64,000 nucleotides of DNA from Patescibacteria group bacterium (GTDB lineage: Bacteria; Patescibacteriota; Dojkabacteria; GCA-002793355), in the NCBI GenBank assembly GCA_016860985.1, contig BOKM01000001.1, positions 92,185-156,184 on the forward strand, read 5' to 3'. Under the pieces are notes generated by a model. It was given only the letters and a program-made list of their open reading frames with translations, had not been told where the DNA came from and did not search any database. Of the stretch, positions 7,601 through 55,496 are shown piece after piece. Every line of letters starts with the position of its first letter. Within the stretch, counting starts at the first letter, position 1. Made by a program: the position numbers and the translations under genes.

Positions 7601-8020
7601 TTGTCAATCTGCCTTATGGTAAAGATACAAAAAACGTACAGGATTTCACTTGAACAACAGATTTCCCCCCTTTCTTCTGAAAAGCATCCTGTCGTTCGTC
7701 ATGCAGTAGTAGAAGCCTCAGGAATTAAGTCTGAATTCATCAATGGTTCAGTTTTGGAAGAAAAAATTAAAGGGTTGGTAAAAGATATGGACTTCCATGC
7801 CGTAAACTACTTTGCCCACCAATTTGAGCCACAAGGTATTTCGTACGTTGTTGTGCTGGAAGAAAGCCATCTCGCGATCCACACGTGGCCAGAGAAAGGA
7901 TATTTTCATGCGGACATTGTCACTTGTACAAAAGAAGATATGGATATTCCAAGGCTAGAAAAAGTTATGAACGCGATCTTCTCACCAGAGAATTTACGAA
8001 TACTTAGACTCTACTACTAA
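7601..8020 (+). CDS. speH: S-adenosylmethionine decarboxylase proenzyme (class 1B, SpeH-type)
   Basis: The signature around the processing site, VVLEESHLAIHTWPEKGYFHADIVTC, is present. Confidence 0.8.
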   Translation: MSICLMVKIQKTYRISLEQQISPLSSEKHPVVRHAVVEASGIKSEFINGSVLEEKIKGLVKDMDFHAVNYFAHQFEPQGISYVVVLEESHLAIHTWPEKGYFHADIVTCTKEDMDIPRLEKVMNAIFSPENLRILRLYY

Positions 8021-47146: not shown

Positions 47147-48265
47147 TTAACTTTGGGATTGTAGCATAGAATTGAGTATTTCGACACTATCGTTATATCT
47201 TTGCAGTCGTTTTACTCGACTGGTATAGGATGGAATTGACTCGATTGTCATACCTACCAAGTTTGGAATTTTTGCAAGTGATTGAATATTACGCTTGTAG
47301 TCTACATACTCTTCTTCAGTCATATGCGTTAAATCTGAATGAGAGTCAAAATTCTTTGCGTAAAATATCGGCTTTGCATCAAGTAAGTGCGCTTCATTAA
47401 AATTCAAGTGCGCATAATACAATTTATTTTTTAAGCGCCGAATAAAGTAATCTTGGTATTTAAAGTGCTGGAGGGATTCTGGCGTAAATTGGTGTTCCGT
47501 ATGCTTTATCCCGTGAGCGTACATAAATCGAGCATACGAATTCGCATGTCCCCAATCAAATAGTACTCCATAATAAGAATCATCAAGTTCATTCATCAAA
47601 CGCTCAAAGAATTGGGCATCACCTAGAAAAGGAGAATAACGTTCATGCCGTCGCTTTAGCCACGGCATATTCTCAATGACAAGCCGTACATTCTGTTCAC
47701 GGAGCAACGGAAGTAATTTCTTTGCAACTTTGGTTATTGACTTAATAATCTCCTTTTCTGACTTATTTGGGTCAGAGGGCAACGGATGTGCAATAAGTAC
47801 TTTGTCTTGCTCTTGTGGGGCAATTGCTTCAAACAAATGCAAATGAGAATACAAGCAAAGTAACGTGGTTGATGAATACTCTGTAATGTCCAGCACGTTT
47901 TCAAGATACGACTTGCGTGCTGTTTGGAAGACTTTTCCATCGTCAATATATGGGGCATGCATCGAACGCACAGACAAGCCCATTTCTACAAATCGTTTCA
48001 CCACAAAATCATTCAACATCCAATGTTTTGAAAACATACCAAGAAACGAGGGAACAATTTCTACATATAAATCCTTACTCTGACCTTTTGCATAAACCGA
48101 ATTATCAATACCTGGAAGGAATCGAAAAATACTTTTCAGAAATTGAATTCCAAGTAAACCAAAAATATATCGCAATGCTGAGTTACGGCTTCGCTTTTCA
48201 ATACCTTGATAATTATAAGTTATCGAGGATGATGTCTGGTTATTATTCTTCATATTGCTCCACAA
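47147..48265 (-). CDS. Xylose-isomerase-like TIM-barrel / AP-endonuclease-family-2-like protein
   Basis: The motifs HAPY, LVIENMP and DWGHAN resemble the metal-ligand pattern of TIM-barrel sugar-phosphate isomerases and endonuclease IV. Confidence 0.4.
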   Translation of the reverse strand: MWSNMKNNNQTSSSITYNYQGIEKRSRNSALRYIFGLLGIQFLKSIFRFLPGIDNSVYAKGQSKDLYVEIVPSFLGMFSKHWMLNDFVVKRFVEMGLSVRSMHAPYIDDGKVFQTARKSYLENVLDITEYSSTTLLCLYSHLHLFEAIAPQEQDKVLIAHPLPSDPNKSEKEIIKSITKVAKKLLPLLREQNVRLVIENMPWLKRRHERYSPFLGDAQFFERLMNELDDSYYGVLFDWGHANSYARFMYAHGIKHTEHQFTPESLQHFKYQDYFIRRLKNKLYYAHLNFNEAHLLDAKPIFYAKNFDSHSDLTHMTEEEYVDYKRNIQSLAKIPNLVGMTIESIPSYTSRVKRLQRYNDSVEILNSMLQSQS

Positions 48266-48902
48266 CTTTATCTGCGATTATAACGAGGCGTTCATCGCTC
48301 GTCCACAGTGGATGGCACGTCACTAAGGTCAATTGCGAATTAAGTGTCTGTTGTAATACATACGAATCACTCACATTCACTATCTGTTTCGTACGAACTC
48401 GATAGTGAATCGTACCTTCTTCGGTTTGGATGGTAATTTCATCTCCTTCTTTCACCCAATCCAGATGATAAAATGTGTCCTTATGAGGTGGTAACTTCAA
48501 AAAACGGTGCCCAATAACTACCACATTTCCGTTAGGAGCGAATGGAGATGCAGAAGGATAATGCCAAAAGCCACGATTCAAAGTGTCTTCGTCCTTTCCT
48601 TCCAGAATTCGACCTTCGATGCCAATTCTCGGTATTTTTAATACTGCTTGCACTTCCGATAAAGACGGGTATTGTAATGACGTTTCTAATTCTTCAGGGA
48701 TAAACTCGATTTCTCCACCAGTGCTACGAAATACTTCTACCTGCGTATTTGCCGTACTCAGTCCAGATTCAACTGCAAGTTGATTGCCAATAATTACAAT
48801 ATCCGTTTGAAATAAAAAAACGATCAAACCAAGAAGCAGTACAAGCGTCGCTGCAATAAATCTTTTTTTCAGTTTTTGTAACTCTCCGTCAGTTCTTGTC
48901 AT
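48243..48902 (-). CDS. Sortase (class A/E-like transpeptidase)
   Basis: An N-terminal TM is present. The catalytic His lies in VVVIGHRF. The active-site Cys motif TLVTCHP is present, as is a downstream Arg. Confidence 0.8.
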   Translation of the reverse strand: MTRTDGELQKLKKRFIAATLVLLLGLIVFLFQTDIVIIGNQLAVESGLSTANTQVEVFRSTGGEIEFIPEELETSLQYPSLSEVQAVLKIPRIGIEGRILEGKDEDTLNRGFWHYPSASPFAPNGNVVVIGHRFLKLPPHKDTFYHLDWVKEGDEITIQTEEGTIHYRVRTKQIVNVSDSYVLQQTLNSQLTLVTCHPLWTSDERLVIIADKVVEQYEE

Positions 48903-49876
48903 GTGTCCTTTTTTATTATACTATCAACCATATAGTAAGTTTTTACAAACAAATTCTTATGGCACCAGAACAGGCACCTCAAAAAGCAAACTCACAGAGC
49001 AACGAACCTGTCATCCCACCAACTCCGCAGCCTGTTTACTCAACGACACAAGCACCAAAGAAAGATACTGCGCTCGCTGGAATCCTCTTTTTAGTTTCAG
49101 TGCTTCTGTTGTGTGGACTTATTGTAACGTTTATCTACAAAACAGCAAAGACATACAAGCTTGCCACACCGATTCTTGCCTCGCTTCCTGCAACTAACAA
49201 AACCGGAGCACTATTACTTGAAGGCTCCGCGCCAAAGAACTCAACCGTTGAACTCTCCACGCTTTCACAAAGTTATACAGTTAAAGCTGGAAAAGACGGA
49301 TCTTTTAGCCTACCTATTACGGTTGAGAACGATGGAAAGGTTAGTATCTCGGCAGTCGCACGAAAGAAAATACTGTTTCTCACTTTTACGAGCGAGAGAA
49401 GCTCAGAAGTGTCAACAATCGTTGACAGAGTTGCGCCAACACTTAAGATTGTTTCTCTACCAAAAACGGTGACGACCTCTACGTTTAATCTAAAAGGCAC
49501 GAGCTCCGAAGAAGCAACTGTTATCATTAAGCTCAATAATCAAGAAGTAAAAATCGCAGCAAAACCAAACGAGCAATTCTCGCAAAAGCTAACGTTTAAA
49601 CCTGGAAAAAATGAAATTGCAATAAAAGCCATCGATATTGCGAATAACGAGTCTGCAGAAGCGACAGTAAGCACAACGTACGCCACAGGGAGCGTCTATA
49701 TTCCTGGTGGTAAAAACACTGGCAATCTTCCTGATTCATCAGGTGAATTACAAATGGCGCTTTCCTCAGTTTTCGGTCGTTGGATCGCATTTGCCGCAGT
49801 CGTAATTGGCGGATTGGGATTTATTGCATCACAAGGCGTTGTCACGATTATAAAACTCATTAGAAAAGAAGTCTGA
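48896..49876 (+). CDS. Surface protein with Ig-like repeats and a C-terminal sortase-type sorting signal (LPDSSG + TM + KLIRKEV); the probable start is at MAPEQ, about nt 48959
   Basis: It has an N-terminal signal/TM. The C-terminus reads NLPDSSGELQ, then a 24-residue hydrophobic stretch, then a basic tail. The gene is divergent from the sortase gene. Confidence 0.5.
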   Translation: MSCVLFYYTINHIVSFYKQILMAPEQAPQKANSQSNEPVIPPTPQPVYSTTQAPKKDTALAGILFLVSVLLLCGLIVTFIYKTAKTYKLATPILASLPATNKTGALLLEGSAPKNSTVELSTLSQSYTVKAGKDGSFSLPITVENDGKVSISAVARKKILFLTFTSERSSEVSTIVDRVAPTLKIVSLPKTVTTSTFNLKGTSSEEATVIIKLNNQEVKIAAKPNEQFSQKLTFKPGKNEIAIKAIDIANNESAEATVSTTYATGSVYIPGGKNTGNLPDSSGELQMALSSVFGRWIAFAAVVIGGLGFIASQGVVTIIKLIRKEV

Positions 49877-49916
49877 CCGTACCTGTTTTTGGTAGAAAAT
49901 GCTATGATGAAGCAGT

Positions 49917-50543
49917 ATGTCACTGCTGACCAGAACGCACAAAATTATTCTTTGGCTCATTATACTGATTTCGGTACTTTCGCTCGGAATACTTCTCTAC
50001 CTTGATTATCGTAAAGGTGAAGTACTCTCAGTTACAGATTCAAAAACGGTTACCGTGACCGGTGATATCCCGCATATTATTGCTATTCAGATAAAGCCTG
50101 AAAGCCGAATACCACCTGCCGGCAACGATGAACTACCTCTTGAAATTGAAATTCGCCCGCCAGGATCACTTATTCCTGTCACAGCAATATCAGCAACTGC
50201 TACTTCTACTGGCGATGCCTCACTAGGGACCATCTCATCAGTATTGCTTCCACCTGGAACTTACGACATCGCAGTAAAAGGACTCTCCCACCTCAGAAAG
50301 GTTTTTCCAAACCAAAACTTTGACGGTCCTGTTGTTAGAACATATACACTCACTCTTCCTCAACTGCCAGCTGGAGATGCAAACCCCACAGCAGATAATT
50401 ATGTGAATTCGCTCGATATTTCATATCTTACGTTAAAGCTCTATGGAAATGACCTCCGTGCTGATTTGACTCATGATGGAACTGTAAATTCGCTCGACTA
50501 CGCTGCGTTGCTACGTAACCTGTCAACTTCCGGGGATAACTAA
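49917..50543 (+). CDS. Membrane-anchored protein with a C-terminal dockerin-like tandem repeat
   Basis: The two repeats are DANPTADNYVNSLDISYLTLKLYG and DLTHDGTVNSLDYAALLRNL. They match the dockerin Ca-binding loop-helix repeats (D-x-N/D-x-DG-x-VNSLD...LL). Confidence 0.55.
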   Translation: MSLLTRTHKIILWLIILISVLSLGILLYLDYRKGEVLSVTDSKTVTVTGDIPHIIAIQIKPESRIPPAGNDELPLEIEIRPPGSLIPVTAISATATSTGDASLGTISSVLLPPGTYDIAVKGLSHLRKVFPNQNFDGPVVRTYTLTLPQLPAGDANPTADNYVNSLDISYLTLKLYGNDLRADLTHDGTVNSLDYAALLRNLSTSGDN

Positions 50544-52171
50544 TGAATAGAAAACTATTTTTTTTAATAGCTTTTGTAGCCTTCTTTTTCGTTCCAGAAA
50601 AAGTTTTTGCAGCTAGCGCTGAGTTTTCAATTTCTCCTGCCAGCGCAACACTCATTCGAGGCTGCACTCAACAAGCCAGAGTAATGATTCAAGTAGATGC
50701 TGCCACCACTAATGCTGCCGATATCATCATAAATTACGACACGAGTAAGATAGAGATTATCGACGCGATGCCGTCAATTCCTGGAATACAAATTTTGTCT
50801 GGTGACGCGTTTGAGAGCTATGCTGGAAATATCGTAAACACAAGTACAGGAGAAATTAAACTCGTTGGATACTCTTCGAGTGGGACCACCACAGGTTCCG
50901 CGACTTTCGCGACCATACTTTTTAAATCACTTCCACTAGCGACAAATGGAGGGTTCACATTTCTGTTTACTGGAGCAAACCCCTATAACTCACTTGATTC
51001 GAATATTGCAGATGCAACTACTTCCTTTGATTTACTCTCAGGTGTGTCTAATTCGAATTACAGCTTTGTAAATGGCAGTTGTGCTTCTGATACCACGGCA
51101 CCGACGATTACATATGTTTCCCCGAAGCCATTAACGAATAATATTCTTCCTAACGCACCTTTAGTGATTAAACTTGAAGATGCAGGGTCCGGTATTCTGC
51201 TACCGACTCTTAAAATCGTTGTAAATGGAATTTTATACACTTCTACAAGTCCTGAAGTATCGATCTCAGGTACACCTAACTCGTCTACTGTTACCTTACT
51301 ACCTGCAACGCCATTTCCTACTAATGCGGTGAGTGTAGTTACCGTTATGGTACAAGATGCTGCAGGAAATCAAAAGACACTCAGTACAAGTTACAACAGT
51401 GCATATACATGCCCAAGCACGATAATCACTAATAACAACTGCCCTCCTACAACTACTCCATCAACCGATAAAGAAGGAACAAGTCCTAAAATTACTGTAC
51501 AAGCAGATACATTGATAAATTTAAAGAATCCTTGGAAAATTAAGATTGTATTAGAAGATTCCGACGGAATTTCCTTGGACTCATTCTCAGTAACCCATGG
51601 ACTAAACATCTATTCATTTGCCGGTACACCAAACCAATTGACACAAACCGGCACAAAGACTAACTACAATGTGTTTCTCACTCTTAATCCAGAAGATATT
51701 ATTGTTACTGCAGACGGGAGTATTGTTCTTGTAATTAGGGTTACAGACTTAAAAGGTAACTCACGCATAGAAACAGTGACAATCCGTACTAACCTGCCAC
51801 AAAGTGTAAAGCCAATTGCAACAACTGTAGCTGTTAAAAATGATTTGCTCTCTGAGATTTATACATACGCAATAACACCCGCAATTATTGGTTTCTTTGT
51901 TGGATACCTTATCTTACTTACCATGCAACCTGTTATTGCACACGTTCAGACACCAACCGGAAAACCAGTAAGGTTTGCACGAGGGTATTATGTATTTAAA
52001 AATGGAAAATCTCAGAAACTTTTTGGATCGTACAATGGAACAATACATGGAAGAATTCCAAGAGAAACGGTCATGCTCATTATCCAAAAATATGGATACA
52101 AACCGCAAAGCTTACCTATTTCACCGTCAATAAAACACAATCCACCCAAAATCAGCTTGTCTGAGATTTAG
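50543..52171 (+). CDS. Secreted, C-terminally membrane-anchored protein with an N-terminal cohesin-like domain and Ig-like domains
   Basis: A signal peptide is present. The block ...ARVMIQVDAATTNAADIIINYDTSKIEIID...GEIKLVGYS...ATFATILFK resembles the cohesin beta-sandwich. Its start overlaps the stop of the dockerin gene (TAATG). Confidence 0.45.
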   Translation: MNRKLFFLIAFVAFFFVPEKVFAASAEFSISPASATLIRGCTQQARVMIQVDAATTNAADIIINYDTSKIEIIDAMPSIPGIQILSGDAFESYAGNIVNTSTGEIKLVGYSSSGTTTGSATFATILFKSLPLATNGGFTFLFTGANPYNSLDSNIADATTSFDLLSGVSNSNYSFVNGSCASDTTAPTITYVSPKPLTNNILPNAPLVIKLEDAGSGILLPTLKIVVNGILYTSTSPEVSISGTPNSSTVTLLPATPFPTNAVSVVTVMVQDAAGNQKTLSTSYNSAYTCPSTIITNNNCPPTTTPSTDKEGTSPKITVQADTLINLKNPWKIKIVLEDSDGISLDSFSVTHGLNIYSFAGTPNQLTQTGTKTNYNVFLTLNPEDIIVTADGSIVLVIRVTDLKGNSRIETVTIRTNLPQSVKPIATTVAVKNDLLSEIYTYAITPAIIGFFVGYLILLTMQPVIAHVQTPTGKPVRFARGYYVFKNGKSQKLFGSYNGTIHGRIPRETVMLIIQKYGYKPQSLPISPSIKHNPPKISLSEI

Positions 52172-53229
52172 ATTGATAACGGAAACGGTATTCCAAACAG
52201 CACCGCAATACCACTCAGGATATTAAGAAGAGCAAAGAGCAGAATCAAGAATCCAGAGGTATAACCAAATAACCCTTTGCCAAAGCGGGCAACATTGTTT
52301 GCGGCACCAAGCGTTATTAGTAAGAGTACTGGCAAAGTGCCAAGTGCAAAGGCACCCATTACCAACGCTCCCTGTGTAAATGAGGCAGTAGAAACAGCAT
52401 AAAGCTGCATAGACTGTGTAAATGCGCACGGAAGAAAGAACGTAGTAACACCAACAATAACTGCCTGTGTTGTGCCCGCTTTATCGTCAAATACGCCAAA
52501 CAATTTTGAGAGTGACTTTGGTAGCACAAGTTTTGGAAGTCGAATACCGACCAAATCAGCAGCAATTGGAATCATGACGACTGCTATTACGACTTTTAAG
52601 ATTGCGCTCCCAACCGCATTAATATGAATAATACGTCCGAGTAAGCCAATAATACCACCCAGTATAACGAACCCTACAATACGAGCAAGGTGAAAAGACC
52701 ATATCGCAGTTGACTTCTGTTCAGCAGCAAACTTTGAAGATAGAGTTAGCGCAACTCCACCAACAACGGCCATACAGGTAGACAACGACGCAATAATTCC
52801 GAGTAAAAATATTGCTGGAAGCGTAATACTTTCTGGGTTAAAAAATGTTGCGATTTGTAAATTTTGCAACAAAAGAAAGATACTCATAAGGGAAGTAGCA
52901 AGCAAAAAGGATAGCGCAACTGTTTTTTTTGAGCGTTGCGTTGTCGCACTTACATTCACAATCCTATACCCGTGCTTCTCTATTTGGTCTGATATTTTTC
53001 TTTCTAGCTCTGTTTGGTTAATATCCATTCCAAGAGTTATCTCAACTTTTTGTTTTTTTGAATCGGCTGAAACCTTAACCACTCCCTGCTGTTTCCGAAT
53101 CGTTTCTTCCATAAATAACTCGCAGGAATCGCAATGCATTCCGTCAATTGTCAATTCACATTTTTTGAGAGTATTCATACTACTGGAACCGAAGAGTAAA
53201 GTTATACATTCCCATAGAACATCCTGCAA
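52168..53229 (-). CDS. HMA (heavy-metal-associated) domain fused to a polytopic permease (DsbD/CcdA- or TauE-like); the probable start is MNTLKK, about nt 53178
   Basis: The N-terminal HMA domain has the CxxC motif in TIDGMHCDSCEL. It is followed by about 7 TM helices. Confidence 0.5.
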   Translation of the reverse strand: MQDVLWECITLLFGSSSMNTLKKCELTIDGMHCDSCELFMEETIRKQQGVVKVSADSKKQKVEITLGMDINQTELERKISDQIEKHGYRIVNVSATTQRSKKTVALSFLLATSLMSIFLLLQNLQIATFFNPESITLPAIFLLGIIASLSTCMAVVGGVALTLSSKFAAEQKSTAIWSFHLARIVGFVILGGIIGLLGRIIHINAVGSAILKVVIAVVMIPIAADLVGIRLPKLVLPKSLSKLFGVFDDKAGTTQAVIVGVTTFFLPCAFTQSMQLYAVSTASFTQGALVMGAFALGTLPVLLLITLGAANNVARFGKGLFGYTSGFLILLFALLNILSGIAVLFGIPFPLSI

Positions 53230-53569
53230 TTATCGTTTTTCCCTGTTTTTGCGGAGGAATGCGAAGGTCAGTACTTCCAGTTGGTGGAAGAAATTTTTCG
53301 ATTTGAAGTTCTGAAATAAGAAGTGAGGCGCTACAATCATATGTGTTATTTGTAACAAATCGCAAGGTGACCTCTTTGTTTGCCGGCAAGACTAATTCCT
53401 TAGGGAAATAACCACCTTTAACGGTAACAACTCCATCAGCCTGGGATTCAGTTGGCAGGATTGTTTGTTGAGGTTGCGGCGGCTTGCCAAAAAATAAAAT
53501 TGCAAGAAAAATTACCAAAAAGGATACTCCGAGCACAATCCATTTTTTGGGAATCACGACACTACTCAT
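53180..53569 (-). CDS. Membrane-anchored cupredoxin-like domain protein
   Basis: An N-terminal TM is present. Candidate metal ligands are ...CSASLL...GCSMGMY. This protein type is commonly paired with metal transporters. Confidence 0.4.
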   Translation of the reverse strand: MSSVVIPKKWIVLGVSFLVIFLAILFFGKPPQPQQTILPTESQADGVVTVKGGYFPKELVLPANKEVTLRFVTNNTYDCSASLLISELQIEKFLPPTGSTDLRIPPQKQGKTIIAGCSMGMYNFTLRFQ

Positions 53570-54114
53570 TCCTGCCTTCCTTCTACCGCAGCAAGTAATA
53601 CCGCACAGGCGAATGCAACTCGCTTATCGATCAATGCTTCATTAACCTCAATATCCATCACATACCTAAAAGGATTGAACTGTTGCTGAAAACCACCTGC
53701 ATCTTGGGTTCCCACTCTCATATCAAACCGTTGAGGTACTAAGTTAGTAAGCAATCTACGTACCAAAGCCAAGGCACCTGATTCTTCTTGAACTATCGCA
53801 AGCTCGTTATCGCCTGGTGAATAAATATGCCATTCGTCACGGAGCATCGAGCGAAATCCCATTCTACGTATAGCGCCTAAATTCTGACCGCTTTCTGCAT
53901 CGACAACATCGTATATTGCATTGAAGTCAATGATATTCCTTGCTTTGATAGAAACAAGGGGCTTTGTCATTGCCTGGTCAACAAAAATCGTTAATTCTTC
54001 TCGTAACTTAAATGCTTTTTGCTTAGCATATCCAACCAAAGATCCGTCTTCACTAGTAATCGAGAACTCTTTACCTAAAAGCACAAAGAACTTTCTTCGT
54101 AATGTGTATTTCAT
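53566..54114 (-). CDS. LURP-one-related (DUF567, tubby-like fold) protein
   Basis: The N-terminus reads MKYTLRRKFFVLLGKEFSITSEDGS, which is the typical LOR-family start. Confidence 0.5.
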   Translation of the reverse strand: MKYTLRRKFFVLLGKEFSITSEDGSLVGYAKQKAFKLREELTIFVDQAMTKPLVSIKARNIIDFNAIYDVVDAESGQNLGAIRRMGFRSMLRDEWHIYSPGDNELAIVQEESGALALVRRLLTNLVPQRFDMRVGTQDAGGFQQQFNPFRYVMDIEVNEALIDKRVAFACAVLLAAVEGRQE

Positions 54115-54120
54115 GAGTCA

Positions 54121-54753
54121 TTATACCCCATACTGCTCACAGATTGGGAGAACTTCTAGTAAATTTGAAATAGTTGGGACGGTGCTGAGTGTGTCTGAAG
54201 TTTTGCGGTTACACCAAATAGGCCTAAATCGTGGCATATGTCGAGCCAATTTTTCGATAACATTTCTATCATCATCAACAATTATGACATCATCTGGTAA
54301 TTTTTCTAACGCGTCTATGCCAGTTTTTTTAGGGTCTATTATCACTAATTCTTTTTCAACATATTCAAGAATTCCTGTCGCTTCTATCCGTAGTCTTTGA
54401 TATCCTGGTACTGCTGCAGAAAAAATACCGATTTTCCACCCTCGTTTTACGAATTCTGTAAGTGTTTGTTTTACTTCAGGAAACACAAACTGAGCGATAT
54501 AACTCGGGGTTGTGAGATAGATTTTGATGATATCACTTGGCACAACCGAAAATAGTTCTGCCATAAACTGAGCATAGCCTTCTGGTGTGAATTCAAGATG
54601 GTCAACGCTACTGACATAGGCGCGCATTCCTTCCTCGACTTGGGCAGCTGTCAATTGAGTAATAGTTGCAACGCGATTTGCTTGCTCAAGCTTAAGCGAA
54701 TCGGTATCAAGTAGCGTTCTATCGAAATCAAAATATATAACGCTACTCTTCAT
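54121..54753 (-). CDS. HAD-superfamily hydrolase
   Basis: Motif I is FDFDRTLLDT (DxDxT). The C-terminal motif IIVDD is present. Confidence 0.6.
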   Translation of the reverse strand: MKSSVIYFDFDRTLLDTDSLKLEQANRVATITQLTAAQVEEGMRAYVSSVDHLEFTPEGYAQFMAELFSVVPSDIIKIYLTTPSYIAQFVFPEVKQTLTEFVKRGWKIGIFSAAVPGYQRLRIEATGILEYVEKELVIIDPKKTGIDALEKLPDDVIIVDDDRNVIEKLARHMPRFRPIWCNRKTSDTLSTVPTISNLLEVLPICEQYGV

Positions 54754-54806
54754 GCCGCATTTTACCCTAGTATTATTAACTTGTCAGCCATAAGGTACAA
54801 TACTTT

Positions 54807-55496
54807 ATGATTCCAATTGGTGATAGCCATAAAACAGGTAAGTTGCCCGTAGTCACAATACTCATACTGTTCATCAATATCGCAGTGTTTTTTGTAGAAC
54901 TAACTGCGCCAGATATTGAGGCTTTCTTTTTGCAGTATGCATTTATTCCGGCAAATTTTATTCCGACACAACTCTCGACCTGGGCACCGATTATCTCTGC
55001 TGCTTTTTTACACGGTGGGATTTCTCATATTCTCTTTAACATGCTGTTTCTTTGGGTATTTGGTGACAATGTAGAAGAGTCGTTAGGGACTATTCGTTTC
55101 ATTTTGTTTTATCTTGGGGCAAGCATTGCAGCTGCGCTCTTGCAATATATTATTGAGCCGAGTTCTGCAATACCCATGATTGGAGCCAGTGGTGCAATTG
55201 CAGGAATACTCGGATACTATCTCGTTGTATTTCCAAGACATACAATACAAACACTACTTTTTTTTGCGGGAGGAATATTTGTGAGAGATCTACCTGCGCA
55301 AATATTTTTGGCATATTGGGCGATTACACAGTTTTTTAGTGGATTTGGTTCATTGGTTACTGCACAAGATGGTGGAACCGCTTGGTTTGCGCATATCGGT
55401 GGGCTACTGTTTGGCGTTATTATCGGCTTACTGATGAAACAGTGGCAAACTTCTAGAAATTACTCGTACGTTTCGCCTCCGTTGTCTTATCAGTAA
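54807..55496 (+). CDS. Rhomboid-family intramembrane serine protease
   Basis: The catalytic Ser lies in GASGAIAG and the catalytic His in AHIGG. The motif HGGISHILFNMLFLWVFG is present. Confidence 0.85.
   Translation: MIPIGDSHKTGKLPVVTILILFINIAVFFVELTAPDIEAFFLQYAFIPANFIPTQLSTWAPIISAAFLHGGISHILFNMLFLWVFGDNVEESLGTIRFILFYLGASIAAALLQYIIEPSSAIPMIGASGAIAGILGYYLVVFPRHTIQTLLFFAGGIFVRDLPAQIFLAYWAITQFFSGFGSLVTAQDGGTAWFAHIGGLLFGVIIGLLMKQWQTSRNYSYVSPPLSYQ

Follow-up and report, generated by a model that had tools for sequence, protein, structure and literature searches.

In the type II cohesin–dockerin pairs of Clostridium thermocellum, the X-dockerin of CipA binds SdbA, OlpB or Orf2p (PDB 2b59, 5k39, and 5m0y). 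Dedicated pairs of one sortase and one substrate are likewise known, for example SrtB with IsdC (NPQTN), the class D sortases with LPNTA(T), and the class E sortases with LAXTG, and the class GN 'marine' sortase has one target (NCBIfam TIGR03784). We examined a locus that bears on both kinds of system. It lies in a 64,000-nucleotide stretch of contig BOKM01000001.1 (positions 92,185 to 156,184) from a Patescibacteria group bacterium of the Dojkabacteria lineage, referred to at its whole length as the window, and comprises genes for a sortase, a putative dedicated sortase substrate (G2), a dockerin protein (DOC), and a cohesin protein (COH). Outside the cellulosome, cohesins and dockerins have been documented in many bacteria and archaea, as far as this is summarized in PMC9012536 (citing Peer et al. 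2009); the examples given there (Peer et al. 2009 via PMC9012536) include Archaeoglobus fulgidus (2xdh), the toxin complexes of Clostridium perfringens (2jh2, 2w1n, and 2vo8), and ANME archaea. The sequence-only reading of this DNA, which had taken such an assembly to be uncharacterised outside cellulolytic Firmicutes, was mistaken on this point, as non-cellulosomal modules are documented (PMC9012536) and were also recovered by the fold search described below.

The four open reading frames (ORFs) that had been proposed for the locus were all present:

48243–48902, minus strand: sortase, 219 aa, with a transmembrane (TM) anchor and an extracytoplasmic catalytic domain (Pfam Sortase).
48959–49876, plus strand (a longer ORF starts at 48896): G2, putative dedicated sortase substrate, 305 aa.
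49917–50543, plus strand: DOC, dockerin protein, 208 aa.
50543–52171, plus strand: COH, cohesin protein, 542 aa.

Many Patescibacteria metagenome homologs were found for all four families, with E values down to 0 and the weakest at 4e-23 among the matches listed, and the closest homolog of the window proteins showed 99% identity. The complete Candidatus Dojkabacteria chromosome CP129470.1 (locus L001) carries the same four genes in identical order and in syntenic surroundings. Because of these many homologs and the conserved synteny, the four ORFs can be taken as genuine genes and not chance ORFs. In the window, a gap of 40 bp lies between G2 and DOC, and DOC and COH overlap by 1 bp, the ATG of COH sharing one base with the TAA stop of DOC (TAATG), which agrees with the translational coupling previously suggested for this pair. 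In CP129470.1, the G2/DOC/COH junctions are overlaps of 4 and 1 bp. With slightly better than even confidence, we read the locus as two separately conserved two-gene envelope modules, sortase–G2 and DOC–COH, which are adjacent in this Dojkabacteria-like lineage. The reading is built on the identities and topologies of the proteins, the conservation of a motif in G2, the gene order, and the separability of the two modules; from it we infer cleavage of G2 by the sortase, binding of DOC to COH, and any part that they may have in host contact.

For the analysis of gene order, loci were collected from a scan of one genome per species with a DOC alignment, plus a look-up of COH homologs, and the four families were mapped in these loci with hidden Markov models (HMMs) built from the alignments of this analysis. 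In each of the 18 distinct loci that extended far enough downstream, COH followed DOC, directly in 17 of them and after one unrelated gene in L005, and the starts and stops of the two genes often overlapped. The DOC–COH loci span Dojkabacteria, Shapirobacteria, Buchananbacteria, and unclassified Patescibacteria, and throughout them the dockerin is C-terminal in its protein and the cohesin is the first mature domain in its own. Sortase and G2 were found beside DOC–COH only in close relatives of the window (L001/L002/L008, L006, L007, and, in part, L025). No sortase or G2 was present within 8–10 kb in 14 loci with DOC–COH, three of which are labelled Dojkabacteria. A metagenome scan with the G2 alignment identified two further loci, L024 and L026, which are syntenic with the window and have sortase and G2 intact, with DOC and COH residues 1–483 gone. 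Directly after G2, both retain a relic of COH residues 484–542 (the last 59; 52% identity) at 8010–8186 in L024 and 739–915 in L026, which marks a clean deletion of DOC and most of COH. The four-gene order is therefore ancestral for this clade and, taking these two loci together with the 14 that lack the sortase, sortase–G2 and DOC–COH are separable modules.

Among the loci, the metagenome-assembled genome (MAG) records of L006, L009, L013, and L015 are titled 'uncultured Gammaproteobacteria' or 'Candidatus Saccharibacteria', yet carry the typically Patescibacteria gene pair; DOC of L006 shares 73% identity with that of the window. These records are probably mislabelled or mis-binned third-party assemblies.

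This separability bears directly on the model first put forward for the locus, in which all four genes form one cellulosome-like scaffold, the sortase fixing G2 to the wall and cohesin and dockerin assembling on G2 for attachment to a host. The model is consistent with the contiguity of the four genes, with the shared orientation and short gaps or overlaps of G2, DOC, and COH in the window, L001, L006, and L007, and with the ancestral order indicated by the COH remnant. It is at odds with the absence of sortase and G2 from 14 of the 18 loci and with their persistence alone in L024 and L026, so that a single integrated scaffold did not survive the comparison. No feature physically linking G2 to DOC or COH was found. 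The window contains exactly one cohesin and one dockerin, and neither a catalytic or carbohydrate-binding domain nor a multi-cohesin scaffoldin was seen in any family member checked; the larger orthologs add only FN3, Ig-like, CarboxypepD_reg, or MG-like domains, or a second dockerin. The locus is not a cellulosome, and with a single cohesin and dockerin and no scaffoldin, enzyme, or carbohydrate-binding module, the analogy to cellulosome anchoring fails. We regard the one-scaffold model as very doubtful.

For DOC, three regions were distinguished:

49944–50003, plus strand: N-terminal TM anchor.
About 50064–50354, plus strand: beta-sandwich.
50358–50540, plus strand: C-terminal dockerin.

The C terminus contains two repeats, DNYVNSLDISYL and DLTHDGTVNSLDYAALL. 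Loop 2 (D183-L-T-H-D-G-T-V-N-S-L-D194) is a canonical 12-residue F-hand, and loop 1 (N156-P-T-A-D-N-Y-V-N-S-L-D167) is preceded by an invariant AGD and resembles the extended first loop of 5k39_B; both loops are conserved. All 23 DOC homologs matched Pfam Dockerin_1 (best E = 9.1e-6). A dockerin-only profile, covering the C-terminal 62 residues, matched six dockerin entries in the PDB with E values from 1e-5 to 1e-3, the best being 5k39_B, a type II X-dockerin, at E = 1e-5 and the dockerin of CelS at E = 2.4e-5. With these homolog and profile matches, the assignment of a dockerin holds. In the AlphaFold2 (AF2) model of DOC, the TM helix and the beta-sandwich were well predicted, and helices at residues 159–176 and 194–205 were obtained at low confidence. 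The X-dockerin chains 2b59_B, 5g5d_B, and 4wi0_B were on the top list of a Foldseek search with the whole model (E = 6e-4 to 4e-3; 2b59_B and 5g5d_B at about 6e-4 to 1e-3), with TM-scores of only 0.3–0.4 and the dockerin at low pLDDT (predicted local distance difference test), and transthyretin-like folds were also on the list. Fold matches for the dockerin segment itself were set aside as not meaningful at its pLDDT of 39–55.

Some DOC orthologs are longer than the window protein. Those of L015 (4004–5356) and L021 (3202–4824) contain a second, mid-protein dockerin (Pfam E = 1.3e-12 and 1.3e-15, respectively), and those of L013, L017, and L020 add FN3 domains. These extra modules suggest more elaborate assemblies in some lineages.

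The features of COH were assigned as follows:

50543–50611, plus strand: signal peptide (...VFA/AS cleavage).
50612–51079, plus strand: cohesin domain.
51089–51394, plus strand: Big_5 Ig-like domain.
51410–51490, plus strand: Cys/Pro/Thr linker, with a further Ig-like region after it.
51869–51925, plus strand: TM segment, residues 443–461, from hydropathy.
51926–52168, plus strand: C-terminal domain of about 81 aa, residues 462–542, which aligns with the CarboxypepD_reg-like domain of longer homologs.

Pfam Cohesin was matched by 8 of the 21 COH homologs (best 6.2e-8), and the ortholog in L015 scored above the gathering score of this model. When the COH family profile was compared with the PDB, the cohesin 4ums was found at E = 0.022; a direct search of the PDB with the COH sequence returned noise only. 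Residues 23–179 were modelled by AF2 with a pLDDT of 79, and a Foldseek comparison of this model with the PDB gave E = 1.8e-7 and a list almost purely of cohesins, in which the non-cellulosomal cohesins of A. fulgidus and C. perfringens were recovered. The fold is a nine-stranded jelly-roll beta-sandwich of cohesin type. Based on the Pfam matches of the homologs and on this fold comparison, the cohesin assignment is upheld.

The most conserved stretch of the COH cohesin is NPYN(S/T)LDSNIAD, with an invariant L-D-S-N-I-x-D (window 50993–51013, residues 151–157, plus flanks). It falls where the AF2 model fails (model residues 124–137, about COH 146–159, pLDDT <50), and may be a candidate binding or metal site that needs a partner. 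The nearly invariant C41 and C180 flank the cohesin domain and could form a disulfide.

As in the type II X-dockerins, the beta-sandwich of DOC stands immediately N-terminal to the dockerin, the dockerin has an extended loop 1 like that of 5k39_B (AGD....DN.(V/I)N..D), and the cohesin sits on a cell-bound protein, COH. Unlike the type II pairs, DOC and COH rely for anchoring on TM helices instead of SLH domains or a sortase, and neither a scaffoldin nor enzyme cargo is present; the fold match is weak. Compared with the documented non-cellulosomal modules, cohesin and dockerin here belong to different proteins, each anchored in the membrane; the gene pair for them is strictly conserved across Patescibacteria, and neither DOC nor COH has an enzyme or toxin domain. 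In the literature on cohesins, dockerins, and sortases of the candidate phyla radiation (CPR), no account was found of a conserved pairing of dockerin-protein and cohesin-protein genes in Patescibacteria.

It may be asked whether DOC and COH bind each other at all. Each could instead have a partner of its own, for instance a further dockerin or cohesin protein encoded elsewhere or a surface ligand of the host, the pairing of their genes reflecting co-expression only. Such an arrangement would suit the anchoring of both proteins in the same membrane at different heights, and the second canonical dockerin (E = 1e-12 to 1e-15) in the L015 and L021 orthologs implies additional partners in some lineages. 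Against it are the co-occurrence and constant order of the two genes in 18 of 18 loci, the overlap of their start and stop codons, the presence of just one module of each kind in the window, and the fact that these modules are defined by cohesin–dockerin recognition (PMC9012536). We therefore consider separate partners unlikely; strict gene pairing and translational coupling point to a DOC–COH complex.

The first gene of the other module was readily identified. The sortase matched Pfam Sortase (PF04203, peptidase C60) over residues 88–212 with E = 5.8e-26 (91.1 bits against a cut-off of 26.6) and TIGR01076 with 73.3 bits (cut-off 39.35), and with the TLVTCHP sequence present, the original call of a sortase stands. 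Hydropathy places an N-terminal TM anchor at about residues 11–44. His132 (GHR), Cys196 (TLVTCHP; codon 48315–48317), and Arg205 match, in alignments with class C and class D sortases of known structure, the catalytic residues of those enzymes, and are kept in 5 full-length orthologs; the closest PDB matches, in which GHR, TC, and R were aligned, were the class C sortase 8t28_A (E = 6.4e-12) and 4d70. The score nevertheless lay far below every NCBIfam class cut-off, namely 85.7 against 160 for class E, 81 against 140 for SrtD, 72.7 against 165 for class D, 66.1 against 160 for class C, 58.3 against 158 for GN, and 28.2 against 166 for class F. The enzyme would thus appear to belong to no curated class (A–F, GN).

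G2 has two Ig-like domains (Pfam Glucodextran_B, E = 1.6e-8, and Big_6, E = 2.3e-6), between the following terminal features:

49070–49138, plus strand: N-terminal TM segment of 23 residues, preceded by a conserved Pro-rich tail of about 37 residues.
49727–49744, plus strand: LPDSSG motif in the C-terminal region.
49781–49852, plus strand: C-terminal hydrophobic segment W275–I298, from hydropathy.
49853–49873, plus strand: basic tail KLIRKEV.

Its start is most likely the ATG at 48959, giving 305 aa, since homologs are 305–311 aa long and begin with MP..; a promoter-like site at 48896–48924, upstream of this ATG, also favours it. By sequence inspection and hydropathy, no evident A-x-A signal-peptidase site accompanies the N-terminal TM segment, and the N terminus looks like an uncleaved membrane anchor, so that the earlier description of G2 as a signal-peptide protein is not supported.

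At the extreme C terminus, the hydrophobic segment and positively charged tail are conserved in G2 orthologs. In the motif, L257, P258, S260, and G262 do not vary among the 10 closest orthologs, whose identity goes down to 41%, and more distant orthologs vary only as LP[DNE][SA][SA]G or IPEAAG, giving [LI]P[DNE][SA][SA]G over 19 orthologs. G2 of CP129470.1 retains LPDSSG, with the next 15–20 residues diverged. No match to Gram_pos_anchor, TIGR01167, LPXTG, PEP-CTERM, or similar models was obtained at E<=1 in Pfam and NCBIfam. Of the sorting signal claimed for this protein, a conserved non-canonical motif, the hydrophobic stretch, and the basic tail are thus present, and an LPXTG pentapeptide or anchor-model match is not. 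A 51-position profile of the G2 C terminus, searched against 1.84 billion representative proteins, gave only 9 matches, every one a G2-type protein (305–320 aa, or fragments) matched at the extreme C terminus. No other C-terminal sorting-like signal, LPXTG-type included, was present in the window or among 594 ORFs from related loci. The notion of a widespread, modular new signal class was rejected, the profile having returned the G2 family alone, with the limited reach that a short profile has at this database size.

The sortase divergently adjoins G2 wherever the upstream flank is present (window, L001, L006, L007, L024, and L025). As the sorting signal is confined to the G2 family, we read sortase and G2 as a dedicated sortase–substrate pair with a variant motif, at which cleavage would take place. 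Like the known dedicated pairs, the sortase gene adjoins the only protein bearing the variant signal, this signal is tripartite, and the catalytic His, Cys, and Arg are present. Unlike them, no described class fits [LI]P[DNE][SA][SA]G, the sortase falls below the class cut-offs, and G2 seems to retain its N-terminal membrane anchor. No published description of an LP[DNE][SA][SA]G sorting motif was found in the literature on cohesins, dockerins, and sortases in CPR.

The apparent retention of this anchor keeps alive a different account of G2, namely that LPDSSG is no sortase site, that G2 is a membrane protein with two TM segments, and that the sortase acts on proteins encoded elsewhere in the genome. 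The conserved N-terminal tail and TM segment without a signal-peptidase site would fit such a protein, as would the lack of any LPXTG-anchor match and a motif of six residues without Thr; moreover, the inspection of this genome covered only about 64 kb. On the other side, the motif is more conserved than its surroundings, the C terminus has the classical tripartite layout, the strict divergent adjacency of sortase and G2 persists even after neighbouring genes have changed, and no alternative substrate was seen in any related locus examined. This account is somewhat unlikely, with an appreciable share of the probability left to it.

A different setting for DOC–COH was found in seven other Patescibacteria loci, where the pair forms the last two genes of an operon of the type F2-F1(-F2-F1)-DOC-COH:

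L003, 2925–9938: F2-F1(-F2-F1)-DOC-COH operon.
L004, 4875–10121: F2-F1(-F2-F1)-DOC-COH operon.
L009, 4623–12148: F2-F1(-F2-F1)-DOC-COH operon.
L015, 2351–8731: F2-F1(-F2-F1)-DOC-COH operon.
L019, 8202–12596: F2-F1(-F2-F1)-DOC-COH operon.
L021, 1626–8028: F2-F1(-F2-F1)-DOC-COH operon.
L018, 17–4034: F2-F1(-F2-F1)-DOC-COH operon.

F1 has a signal peptide, two beta-sandwiches, an FWVIPW sequence, a C-terminal TM segment, and a charged tail, and weakly matches WxL-interacting proteins (Pfam PF06030, E = 1.4e-4; EfmWxLIP1 in the PDB, E = 0.0035). The F2 proteins are secreted, pilin- or WxL-like, and end in ...AGNY...YTATA.F; they could not be called as WxL proteins or Pam pilins, as the F2 profile gave no informative Pfam or PDB match. 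Firmicute WxL loci also contain an LPXTG protein. In the Pam pilus of CPR, membrane-anchored PapD-like chaperones occur with pilins, and PamC and PamD are two-domain chaperones with a C-terminal TM helix (bioRxiv 10.64898/2026.03.03.709456). The F2-F1-DOC-COH layout fits both the published CPR Pam pilus operon and the Firmicute WxL/Csc loci, the likeness to Pam being by description only. Unlike the DOC–COH operons, the Pam pilus paper (bioRxiv 10.64898/2026.03.03.709456) makes no mention of cohesin or dockerin. The window locus differs from the WxL/Pam operons, no F1 or F2 homolog being present in its 64 kb.

Taken further, DOC–COH might serve, in Patescibacteria specifically, as the membrane base of an apparatus for surface filaments or adhesins, or as its adaptor. 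It would, in most lineages, stand at the end of WxL/Pam-pilus-like operons; in this Dojkabacteria clade it would instead be coupled to a wall-stapled Ig-domain protein and a sortase with a new six-residue motif, as part of the machinery by which an epibiont holds its host. We offer this extension as speculation and, taken as a whole, think it improbable.

Returning to the reading of two adjacent modules, the following mechanism can be proposed. Judging by the short gap and overlaps in the window and in CP129470.1, G2, DOC, and COH would be co-transcribed in that order in this clade. The first module would consist of the membrane-anchored sortase and its single dedicated substrate, G2. Inserted by its N-terminal TM segment, G2 would display its two Ig-like domains; the sortase would then cleave within or after [LI]P[DNE][SA][SA]G and transfer the G2 C terminus to a peptidoglycan precursor or another amine. 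G2 would thereby be stapled between membrane and wall, with both ends fixed. The second module would be a 1:1 pair of DOC, a predicted short type-II membrane protein (TM segment, beta-sandwich, and dockerin), and COH, a predicted long type-I membrane protein with its cohesin at the distal N terminus on a stalk of Ig-like domains. The two would form a Ca2+-dependent cohesin–dockerin heterodimer on the cell surface and serve as a structural or adhesive stalk rather than an enzyme scaffold, in contact either in cis, by way of a flexible stalk, or in trans, between cells. A role in host attachment is plausible. The parts are all of known kinds, in a new arrangement and with a new motif variant.

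Several observations weigh against this reading. Window COH gave no match to Pfam Cohesin (PF00963) at E<=1, and window DOC reached only 20.9 bits (E = 4e-4) against the cut-off of 22.9 for Dockerin_1 (PF00404). Because these query scores are weak, the domain identities of both proteins rest on homologs, profiles, and fold comparison, and in the AF2 model of DOC it is the dockerin part that has the pLDDT of 39–55. With DOC and COH in the same membrane and the cohesin distal on a long stalk, binding in cis requires that the stalk be flexible. By topology, the COH tail that follows the TM segment would lie in the cytoplasm, an unusual place for a beta-sandwich. For G2, the apparently uncleaved and conserved N-terminal TM segment is atypical for a sortase substrate, and the six-residue, Thr-less motif counts on the same side.

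The genes on either side of the locus were also noted:

47147–48265, minus strand: AP_endonuc_2 gene (xylose-isomerase-like TIM barrel), 372 aa, sharing 23 bp with the 3' end of the sortase gene.
52168–55496, downstream stretch as a whole: on the minus strand, a heavy-metal-associated and DsbD_2 membrane protein, a cupredoxin-like protein, a LOR-family protein, and a HAD hydrolase, with the rhomboid gene below completing the stretch.
54807–55496, plus strand: rhomboid protease, after the minus-strand group, 5 kb away.

Domain names for the genes at 52168–55496 were taken from the syntenic locus L001, and apart from synteny no tie between these genes and the surface genes was found. L001 and L007 have the AP_endonuc_2 gene in synteny; L024 has in its place two genes that by eye look phospholipase-D-like and glycerophosphodiester-phosphodiesterase-like. 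The AP_endonuc_2 and rhomboid genes were rejected as members of the system, being syntenic in close relatives only and, in the case of AP_endonuc_2, replaced in L024.

Little is known of how Patescibacteria build their envelope and attach to hosts. CPR genomes show an enrichment of sortases, whose substrates are uncharacterised (PMC6744442), the cultivated Saccharibacterium Southlakia has an essential envelope protein with a dockerin domain (PMC10633639), and a CPR-specific pilus has been described only recently (bioRxiv 10.64898/2026.03.03.709456). The locus offers two testable handles on these questions, namely a sortase whose single substrate is encoded beside it and carries a defined variant motif, suited to a peptide assay, and a 1:1 cohesin–dockerin pair that is conserved in several CPR lineages and suited to work with small recombinant modules. 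If it is true that this pair anchors surface filaments or adhesins, cohesin–dockerin biology would reach beyond the scaffolding of enzymes into the architecture of the envelope, in a major bacterial radiation.

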